Virus record (IMG/VR): IMGVR_UViG_2526164599_000006
Length of the DNA: 51,662 nt
From: a virus
Lineage: Duplodnaviria > Heunggongvirae > Uroviricota > Caudoviricetes
Reading direction: 5' to 3' (one strand)
Below are positions 4,468-7,057 of this stretch, one piece after another. The position numbers and the translations under genes are program-made. Under the pieces are notes generated by a model, which was not told the origin of the DNA, made no database searches, and saw only the letters and a list, made by a program, of their open reading frames with translations. Numbering within the stretch: the stretch's first letter is position 1; each line of letters starts with the position of its first letter.

Positions 4468-4892
4468 TGTTTTTGGTTTTAACTGTTCCGCGTGCGCTCA
4501 GCCGCATTCACCACATCACAAAATTCACTTTAAAAAGGGCGGCAGAGCAGTCACGGAGTAAAACTGATACCGCCAAACGTCACCAGAAAATTGATAACAG
4601 AGGGCGTTGCAGCGGGGTTGTCACTTAAGCGTATGGTCAACCTGACAACCCGGTGTCCTCAACGGGGGAAGGAATAACCCCGCCATACTTACCGCCGCGC
4701 CATTTCGCGGATTGCCACAACCGGAAGCGCACGGTCGACGAAAATTTAACGACAGGCTATCTATGAACCAGCTACCTCGCCGTGCGCTTTCGCGTTATGG
4801 TCTGACTTTTCAGGGAAATATCCTTTCAGTAAACTTGTCAACGCCAAGATTATTGGCCGTTTTTCGCCATTTTTAATGTCCGCTATTGGTCA

Positions 4893-5690
4893 TTAATGTT
4901 GTCCGCTTTCCGCCATTTCATCATCACTGATTGGCGTGGCGTTTTTTGCCAGCACTCCCGCTTTGCGTTTTTCCTTTAACCGGTAGCTTTCTCCTTTGAT
5001 GTTCAGTGTGGTTGAGTGGTGGAGCAGTCGATCCAGGATTGCCGTTGCCAGCACGTTATCGCCGAACATCTCTCCCCAGTCGGCGAACCCTTTATTTGAT
5101 GTCAGCACGATGCTCGCTTTTTCATATCGACGGTTCAGCAACCGGAAGAACAGACTGGCTTCCTCGCGGGTCATCGGCAGATAGCCTATCTCATCCAGTA
5201 TCAGTACCCGGGCATAACCAAGCTGCTGTAGCTGTTTTTCCAGCCGGTTTTCCTGTTTTGCCTTCATGAGTGTGGCGATCAGCTTATCCAGTGGCATGAA
5301 CAGTACCCGATGACCAGCGTCCGCCGCTTTTACCCCGAGAGCGACTGCCAGGTGCGTTTTACCCACACCGGGCGGACCCAGCAGGATCACGTTCTCGCTA
5401 CGCTCCACGAACGCCAGCCCGGCCAGCTCACGGACGACCTTACGATCGATACCTGGCTGGAAGCCGAAGTCGAACTGCTCCAGCGTTTTGACCCACGGGA
5501 AGCGGGCCTGTTTCAGCCGGGACTCCATACCGCGCTGATGCCTCCCGTTCCATTCCTGCTGCAACGCCATGCACAGGAACTCGCGGTAGTTCAGTTCTTT
5601 TTTGGCCGCCTGCTCCAGCAGGCTTTCAACGTGGTAGCCCAGATGTTCCATTTTAAGACGACTCAGCAGTGTCTCCAGTTCATGCATCAC
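4893..5690 (-). CDS. istB: IS21-family transposition helper ATPase IstB
   Basis: 265-aa ORF with Walker [10 protein letters not shown] and Walker [10 protein letters not shown]; overlaps istA stop by 4 nt. Confidence 0.9.
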
Positions 5691-6859
5691 AACAGCTCCT
5701 CATACGTACTCAACGGTCTGTGTTCCACCTGACTGACCTGCTGCCAGAGTGGGGCGTGATGCTCCGGCACGGTTTGCCAGCTGGATGCAGCCGAACAGAG
5801 ACGGTGCGATGCTACCTGTTGCTCATTACTGTAGATCCGTAGTTCATCATCCAGCGAGATCCGTATTGATACCGGCTGGCCACACAGGCTTTCCGGTACG
5901 CTGTAACGGTTCCCGCCAACCTCGATATAGCCATCCCAGGAGACATGACGGATATCGAAATAGCTGGTATCGAAGTCCGTACCCGGCAGCGGATGCAGAT
6001 GCTCCTGTTCCTGCGTGAAGCGCTGTTCCGGTGTCTGCCTGAACTGGCGAAGTTCTCGCCTGTCAGCAACGTCAGCCATCCACTGCTCCAGTAGCTGGTT
6101 AACATGGGCGAAGCTGTCGAACCGGCGGTACCGGACGAAGAAGTTTTCCTTGAGGTATTTCACCATCCGTTCAACCTTACCTTTGGTTCTGGCCCTTCGT
6201 GGACGGCAGGCCCGTGGCAGGAAGCCATAGTGATCGGCCAGCAGCAGGAACCCGGAGTTGAACACCACCTTCCCATTGTTATTTTTCAGAACTGCGGCTT
6301 TCTGGTTATCGACCAGCACGGTTTTCACGCTACCGCCGAAGTAGCGAAAGGCGCGGACCAGTGACTCATAGGTATGTTCAGCATCCTGCTTTGGTGCCGC
6401 GAAGACATGGAAGCGACGTGAGAACCCCAGCGTATTAACCGCGAAGTTAACCCTGCATCGTTGCCCGGCAACCTCAGCCTCAACTTCTCCCCAGTCATGC
6501 TGTAGCTGGTAACCGGGCTGAGTTTCGAAGCGAACCGTTTTCTTCGATGGCCGCATCTTACGTTTGGGCTGGATGTAGTAGCGCAACATGGAACGGCCAC
6601 CGGTATAACCCATCGCTTTGATTTCCGCCAGGATGACCTCGCCGTTCCAGACGTTCTCAGCCAGACGCATATCTATATAGTCCATGAACGGCTTGAGTTT
6701 GGCCATTTTGTGGCGTGTTTTTCTGGCCGGAGGTTCCGGGTATTTCAGGTACCGTCTGACGGTCCGCTCAGAGCAACCAACCTGAGTGGCAATATCAACA
6801 ATATACGCACCTTGCTGGCGCATTTGCTTTATCATGTAAAAATCCTCTCTGCTCAGCAT
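5687..6859 (-). CDS. istA: IS21-family transposase IstA
   Basis: 390-aa ORF with N-terminal HTH ([12 protein letters not shown]) and DDE-type integrase core. Confidence 0.9.
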
Positions 6860-7057
6860 GAGTGTTCCCTTTGTGGTGTAGGAACCTTAAGGAAACAACA
6901 TGTTGGGTGGAGCGGACAATCCAAATGGTGAATTACTGTCTTATATCATTGGCGCTGACAAACTGTCAGTGCCGGATTCTTATCCGTGTCCGGCGCACGA
7001 CCACACGCTGTCACGAGAGGTCTCCATTCTCAACCAGTAACCTCAATGGAGGATAAA

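Follow-up and report, generated by a model that had tools for sequence, protein, structure and literature searches.

Analysis of the window, i.e., the whole stretch of 51,662 nucleotides of DNA considered here, suggests with a probability of about 0.85 that the insertion sequence ISEc62 recently entered the dicBF leader of a lambdoid prophage, that no coding sequence was broken, and that expression of the downstream genes is likely reduced. Insertion of IS elements into prophage early regions is a common route of prophage decay. The element, the mechanism and the kind of event are all already known, and the general significance is small, the element and its mechanism being textbook. For annotation, the value of the result is that the element can be labelled ISEc62 and its site described as the dicF leader rather than as a disrupted gene. 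Published literature on ISEc62 and on E. coli DEC13D, the strain from which the window derives, was found to contain passing mentions only.

The element lies between two copies of AACT, and the order over 4832..6964 is AACT, TGTCAACGCCAA...TTGGCGCTGACA, AACT. Its features are the following.

4832..4835: target-site duplication, left copy, AACT (present once in the identical empty site of 55989 and O104:H4)
4836..6960, minus strand: ISEc62 (IS21 family), complete copy of 2125 bp (full-length 100% identity to PGAP-annotated ISEc62 copies)
4836..4921, minus strand: right terminal inverted repeat region, at the istB-distal end (TGTC-type repeats from 4836, 4877 and 4900)
4893..5687, minus strand: istB, AAA+ helper ATPase, 264 aa from ATG (Pfam IstB_IS21; NCBIfam; PGAP coordinates of identical copies)
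5687..6859, minus strand: istA, DDE transposase, 390 aa (Pfam HTH, rve and Mu-transpos_C_2; NCBIfam; PDB)
6875..6960, minus strand: left terminal inverted repeat region, upstream of istA (repeats at 6960..6939 and 6918..6897)
6961..6964: target-site duplication, right copy, AACT (sequence and empty-site match)

Copies matching the element end to end, at 100% identity over 2125 bp, were found in numerous E. coli chromosomes and plasmids, including those of E. coli strains E24377A, F5505-C1 and TW10590. In total, 867 records matched ISEc62 at a coverage of at least 80%, 120 of them at an identity of at least 99%. The name ISEc62 is the PGAP/RefSeq label on identical copies, which are annotated as 'IS21-like element ISEc62 family transposase' together with IstB. 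The terminal inverted repeats, with TGTCAACGCCAA as the first bases and TTGGCGCTGACA as the last, match at 11 of 12 positions, and TGTC(A/C)-type repeats occur three times in the right end (offsets 1, 42 and 65) and twice in the left end (offsets 1 and 43). A multi-repeat architecture of this kind, with R1/R2 repeats and a -35 box in the right terminal inverted repeat, has been described for the ends of IS21 (PMC10122671). The copy in the window likewise has TG...CA ends, internal copies of the terminal motif and a target duplication within the 4–8 bp range of the IS21 family. On the minus strand the element terminates in ...GGCGTTGACA, i.e., in an outward-facing consensus -35 hexamer TTGACA, while a -10-like TATAAG is located in the left end, 16–21 nt from the tip. 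Judged by sequence only, the right-end TTGACA and the left-end TATAAG are compatible with the junction promoter of tandem IS21 copies.

Both genes of the element appear complete. The stop codon of istA overlaps the start of istB at 5687..5690, and an alternative upstream GTG at 5690 would give an IstB of 265 aa. IstA contains an N-terminal HTH_23/HTH_7 domain, an rve catalytic core and a Mu-transpos_C_2 C-terminal barrel (Pfam), scores 283 bits against the NCBIfam transpos_IS21 equivalog (cutoff 160), and can be aligned along its entire length with the cryo-EM structure of IstA from IS5376 (PDB 8b4h, E 5e-84), the D..D..E-containing motifs (hDWgev, vlvDN, KGKVER) being kept. IstB matches Pfam IstB_IS21 (E 1e-87) and NCBIfam IS21_help_AAA (296 bits, cutoff 200). 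ISEc62 copies in other E. coli encode the same WP_000952428.1-type IstA and WP_000544809.1-type IstB; their ends and 4-bp duplications are also alike, with the insertion site as the only difference. The istA-istB operon, the TG...CA ends, the repeated IstA-binding motifs, the putative -35 box in the right terminal inverted repeat and the short duplication are shared with IS21 and IS5376, although the duplication is 4 bp here in contrast to the 5 bp reported for IS5376 (PMC10122671). In the phage collection, the sole IS21 match was an 86%-identical (85.8%) copy in the P2-like phage fiAA91-ss of E. coli O157:H7; the divergence from this copy is 14%, and that from IS5376 is larger. Phage fiAA91-ss is thus likewise a temperate phage genome with a resident IS21-family element, but it represents another phage type, another site and another isoform of the element. 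Based on these comparisons, the element is an intact and probably active copy of the catalogued IS21-family ISEc62. From what is known of the family, transposition would have involved IstA, a DDE transposase, and IstB, an AAA+ target-capture ATPase, acting through a 4-bp staggered cut.

The empty site was rebuilt from two flanks of 600 bp each, with one AACT kept in the left one. The rebuilt sequence was 100% identical over 1200 bp to prophages of E. coli 55989, of O104:H4 outbreak strains and of others, and 152 genomes carried most of the query in one place. This match over 1200 bp proves that 4 bp were duplicated and where exactly the element ends, and it makes irrelevant the chance of 1 in 256 with which a lone 4-bp repeat would match. 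Direct repeats of at least 4 bp also flank all eight of the other identical ISEc62 copies, located at unrelated sites (4 bp in six cases, 5 bp in one and 6 bp in one). The first-pass annotation had proposed a 2125-bp IS21-family element with a 4-bp AACT duplication; its family, size, ends and duplication were all borne out, and both the identical ISEc62 copies and the empty site place the boundaries precisely, with the target duplication next to them.

The window is 100% identical to contig AIHI01000010.1 of E. coli DEC13D. The left junction was absent from 5,426 complete E. coli genomes, and a small open reading frame that spans the right junction was confined to E. coli DEC13D and its sister strain DEC13E; from these two distributions we infer that the insertion is lineage-specific and young. 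We also considered that the element could be ancestral to the phage lineage, a possibility named by the first-pass annotation, or that it could be an artefact of draft assembly, as the window derives from a draft genome assembled around 2012, with homopolymer errors. An ancestral element is contradicted by the 152 genomes with the empty site, by the complete genomes, none of 5,426 having the left junction, and by related prophages that lack the IS at this position. Against an artefact, DEC13E provides a second, independent assembly of the right junction. Both explanations are further opposed by the perfect target duplication, by the 100% identical empty site in many genomes, and by the ISEc62 copy itself, which has zero differences from other copies; we therefore reject both as extremely improbable. 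On the evidence of these comparisons, the insertion is real, precise, recent and not ancestral.

A target preference for sequences that resemble the inverted repeat was considered and rejected. The right flank, TGTCAGTGCC, resembles the tip of the IS, TGTCAGCGCC, at 9 of 10 positions; however, this motif is absent at the eight other ISEc62 sites, which share no target motif among themselves, and the resemblance is therefore probably due to chance. At 6949..6975, the right flank TGTCAGTGCCGG, with this 9/10 resemblance to the IS terminus, forms a 12-bp hairpin with the left end. The same flank gives a CTGACA 18 nt upstream of the left-end TATAAG, in a manner similar to the tandem-IS21 junction promoter; this is also probably a chance arrangement. 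Separately, DEC13E was found to have, in the same prophage, an extra IS66-family element of the three-ORF tnpA/B/C type (about 7260..10343 of locus L014, corresponding to about 13446 in the window). DEC13D is without this element, which shows that IS activity is continuing in the lineage.

Downstream of the insertion, in the sense of transcription, lies a leftward operon, part of which is also found upstream of the element. The relevant features are as follows.

1..3893, minus strand: distal leftward operon, consisting of exonuclease, excisionase and integrase
1..1131, minus strand: integrase (open reading frame; annotation of homologous genes in 55989)
1109..1357, minus strand: excisionase (open reading frame; annotation of homologous genes in 55989)
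1422..3893, minus strand: exonuclease, 823 aa (open reading frame; annotation of homologous genes in 55989)
3986..4177, minus strand: ydfD-like DUF1482 gene (Pfam DUF1482; DEC13D gene call)
4174..4362, minus strand: dicB, cell-division inhibitor, 62 aa (Pfam DicB, E 6e-37; DEC13D gene call)
4537..4588, minus strand: DicF sRNA (Rfam RF00039, 76.7 bits, gathering score 48)
7241..7591, minus strand: 116-aa open reading frame, together with the ydfA-like gene the promoter-proximal portion of the operon, ahead of the IS
7591..7830, minus strand: ydfA-like DUF1391 gene (Pfam DUF1391, E 6e-29)
7923..7950, minus strand: candidate early-left promoter TTGACT-16-TAAACT (consensus scan)

The layout is of the Qin type, with the ydfA-like gene, DicF, dicB and the ydfD-like gene on one strand, downstream of a divergent repressor/Cro-like pair. 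In the Qin prophage of K-12 (ydfA-ydfB-ydfC-dicF-dicB-ydfD-ydfE..intQ), the order and the orientation relative to the divergent pair are the same, with 97% identity across dicF-dicB-ydfD. The two prophages have different promoter-proximal genes; those in the window include a ParE/PaaA2 module and the 116-aa open reading frame. Qin also carries an IS in this operon, namely IS2E in ydfE, but this lies downstream of dicF, whereas ISEc62 lies upstream. Furthermore, Qin is cryptic, in contrast to the prophage in the window, which looks structurally complete, based on its gene content, and is of the lambdoid type: the rightward genes include YdaS-like, YdaT-like, O-like replication, Q, lysis, terminase, portal, capsid and tail genes. 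The stop codon of the integrase gene coincides with the start of the window, and in DEC13D and DEC13E the prophage is integrated next to ompW. The candidate promoter at 7923..7950 is putatively analogous to the promoter of the Qin dicB operon, and a similar promoter-like site occurs at the analogous position in the 55989 prophage.

The insertion point is located 247 nt upstream of the DicF 5' end and 35 nt inside the conserved dicF-dicB module, the 97% homology to Qin starting 35 nt upstream of it. By alignment, the equivalent position in K-12 Qin is about 96 nt past the ydfC stop codon and 245 nt before dicF. On the minus strand, no open reading frame crosses the site beyond a 29-codon open stretch, the remaining open frames being unannotated and on the plus strand, and PGAP annotates no gene at this position in uninterrupted relatives. 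Without an annotated gene or a meaningful open reading frame on the operon strand, the insertion splits an untranslated leader and not a gene, and the earlier suggestion that a small early gene may have been disrupted has to be withdrawn. The element has the putative early-left promoter on one side and exonuclease, xis and int on the other, and it is oriented with the leftward operon (istA and istB on minus); both points agree with the first-pass annotation, as judged from the gene layout and the relatives with the empty site. DicF and dicB, which that annotation did not include, are the nearest downstream features and the most directly affected, and both are toxic division inhibitors. The 5' end of DicF is generated by RNase E processing of a polycistronic transcript. 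The functional phages Tritos, mEp460_ev081 and PhiR42_1 have the module uninterrupted.

ISEc62 lengthens by 2.1 kb the distance that separates dicF, dicB, the ydfD-like gene, exonuclease, xis and int from the putative repressor-side promoter. Partial polarity on these downstream genes is the most likely outcome, with somewhat better than even odds. In the proposed mechanism, transcripts reading in from the phage promoter would form a hairpin that occludes the istA ribosome-binding site, and Rho could act on the resulting ~2 kb of poorly translated RNA. Upon induction, less DicF, DicB, exonuclease, Xis and Int would then be made, although their expression need not cease altogether. The predicted hairpin on the read-in RNA, which is composed of the flank and the left end, pairs the istA ribosome-binding site and has a fold z of -3.1. 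Pfam and NCBIfam searches recognised no N-type antiterminator among the promoter-proximal proteins.

The principal competing explanation is that the insertion is nearly neutral, i.e., that leftward transcription reads through the element, that induction still yields DicF, DicB, exonuclease, Xis and Int, and that the prophage stays excisable. Terminator prediction for the minus strand gave no intrinsic terminator within 4836..6960 or where transcription leaves the element, which would permit such read-through. The istA and istB genes are translationally coupled and co-oriented with the operon; they could be translated, limiting the action of Rho, and this also weighs against polarity itself. 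Moreover, the native leader already comprises ~750 nt of untranslated RNA, which suggests that the operon tolerates long untranslated stretches. Sequestration of the istA ribosome-binding site on the read-in RNA, on the other hand, favours Rho-dependent termination over the 2 kb, and the promoter-proximal genes are without a recognised N-like antiterminator. A near-neutral insertion is possible but rather unlikely, and partial polarity remains our preferred reading. The first-pass annotation had further proposed that the prophage might be locked in; this is speculation and presupposes that xis and int have no promoter other than the candidate one. DEC13D and DEC13E are possible natural strains for the study of polarity caused by a co-oriented IS21-family element in the absence of a recognisable N-type antiterminator, and likewise of the uncoupling of DicF/DicB expression from prophage induction.

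A further explanation, for which we see only a small chance, is a promoter swap, in which DicF and dicB would be expressed at a low constitutive level from the IS in place of the repressor-controlled phage promoter. Such transcription could come from read-out of istAB, from an outward promoter within the right end, or from the -35 hexamer TTGACA at the tip. The right end does finish in this consensus hexamer facing DicF, and a -35 box in the right terminal inverted repeat is known from IS21 (PMC10122671). However, no acceptable -10 hexamer is found 16–18 nt past TTGACA, where the flank offers TTTCCC, ATTTCC and TTCCCT, and a hybrid outward promoter formed from the terminal hexamer was rejected on this ground. 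The only outward promoter-like site inside the element, TTAAAA-16-AATAAT (4876..4849, minus strand), is weak; it fits the consensus at 9 of 12 positions, and such sites are about as frequent in shuffled sequence. Read-out of istAB would be allowed by the stretch from the istB stop codon to DicF, in which no terminator was found. Constitutive DicF or DicB is toxic (PMC5069750), and a strong effect would be counter-selected.

In its fullest form, the promoter swap would mean that the IS rewired a toxic module in a single step of domestication, with DicF, DicB, exonuclease, Xis and Int uncoupled from induction, and DicF and dicB placed on a weak, IstA-autoregulated read-out; we consider this improbable. 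If it were true, the lysogen would make low levels of DicF and DicB constitutively, with possible effects on division, metabolism or phage-receptor functions, and the prophage would be excision-impaired. Reduced expression through polarity is preferred over this rewiring.

The gene in the repressor position (about 8527..8898, minus strand) is frameshifted in the window, giving a 30-aa stub and a 92-aa open reading frame. The difference lies in a poly-A tract at 8886..8892, directly after the start codon, which is A7 in the window, A8 in the otherwise identical homologue of strain AREA_492 and also A8 in DEC13E; several short public assemblies likewise have A7, and one has A9. Over 7.2 kb, DEC13D and DEC13E have only two differences, both of which are single-base homopolymer indels. 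The intact 123-aa protein is encoded on at least 999 contigs, in comparison to 24 contigs, mostly shorter than 2 kb, for the 92-aa truncated form. Based on A8 in DEC13E, the restriction of the differences to homopolymers and the abundance of the intact form, the frameshift is probably a sequencing error. The idea that a dead repressor would make the IS insertion compensatory was dropped for this reason. The slippage-prone tract at repressor codons 2–4 is nevertheless worth noting. The C-terminal part of the 123-aa protein weakly resembles NCBIfam DicA (E 1e-6, below cutoff), Pfam gave no hit, and in some sources the protein is called 'phage repressor protein CI'. The second difference between the two strains, at window position 7481, is T7 versus T6 and truncates the 116-aa open reading frame in DEC13E; it is typical of sequencing errors.

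Several other features were observed around the operon and elsewhere in the prophage. On the plus strand, at 7058..7252, a conserved 64-aa gene (WP_001295058.1), for which no Pfam or NCBIfam match was found, is opposed to the leftward operon and overlaps the 3' end of the 116-aa open reading frame by 12 nt. At 8035..8560 on the minus strand, a ParE toxin/PaaA2-type antitoxin pair separates the repressor-position gene from the candidate early-left promoter; the pair is present in strain AREA_492 and absent from the 55989 relative. Rfam matches at 15017..15192, 19717..19966, 20666..20855 and 49403..49601 correspond to sok RNA, two tRNAs, STnc100 and IS009. The sok antitoxin RNA has a hok-type gene nearby, the two tRNAs are downstream of Q, and IS009 is near the tail-fibre end.
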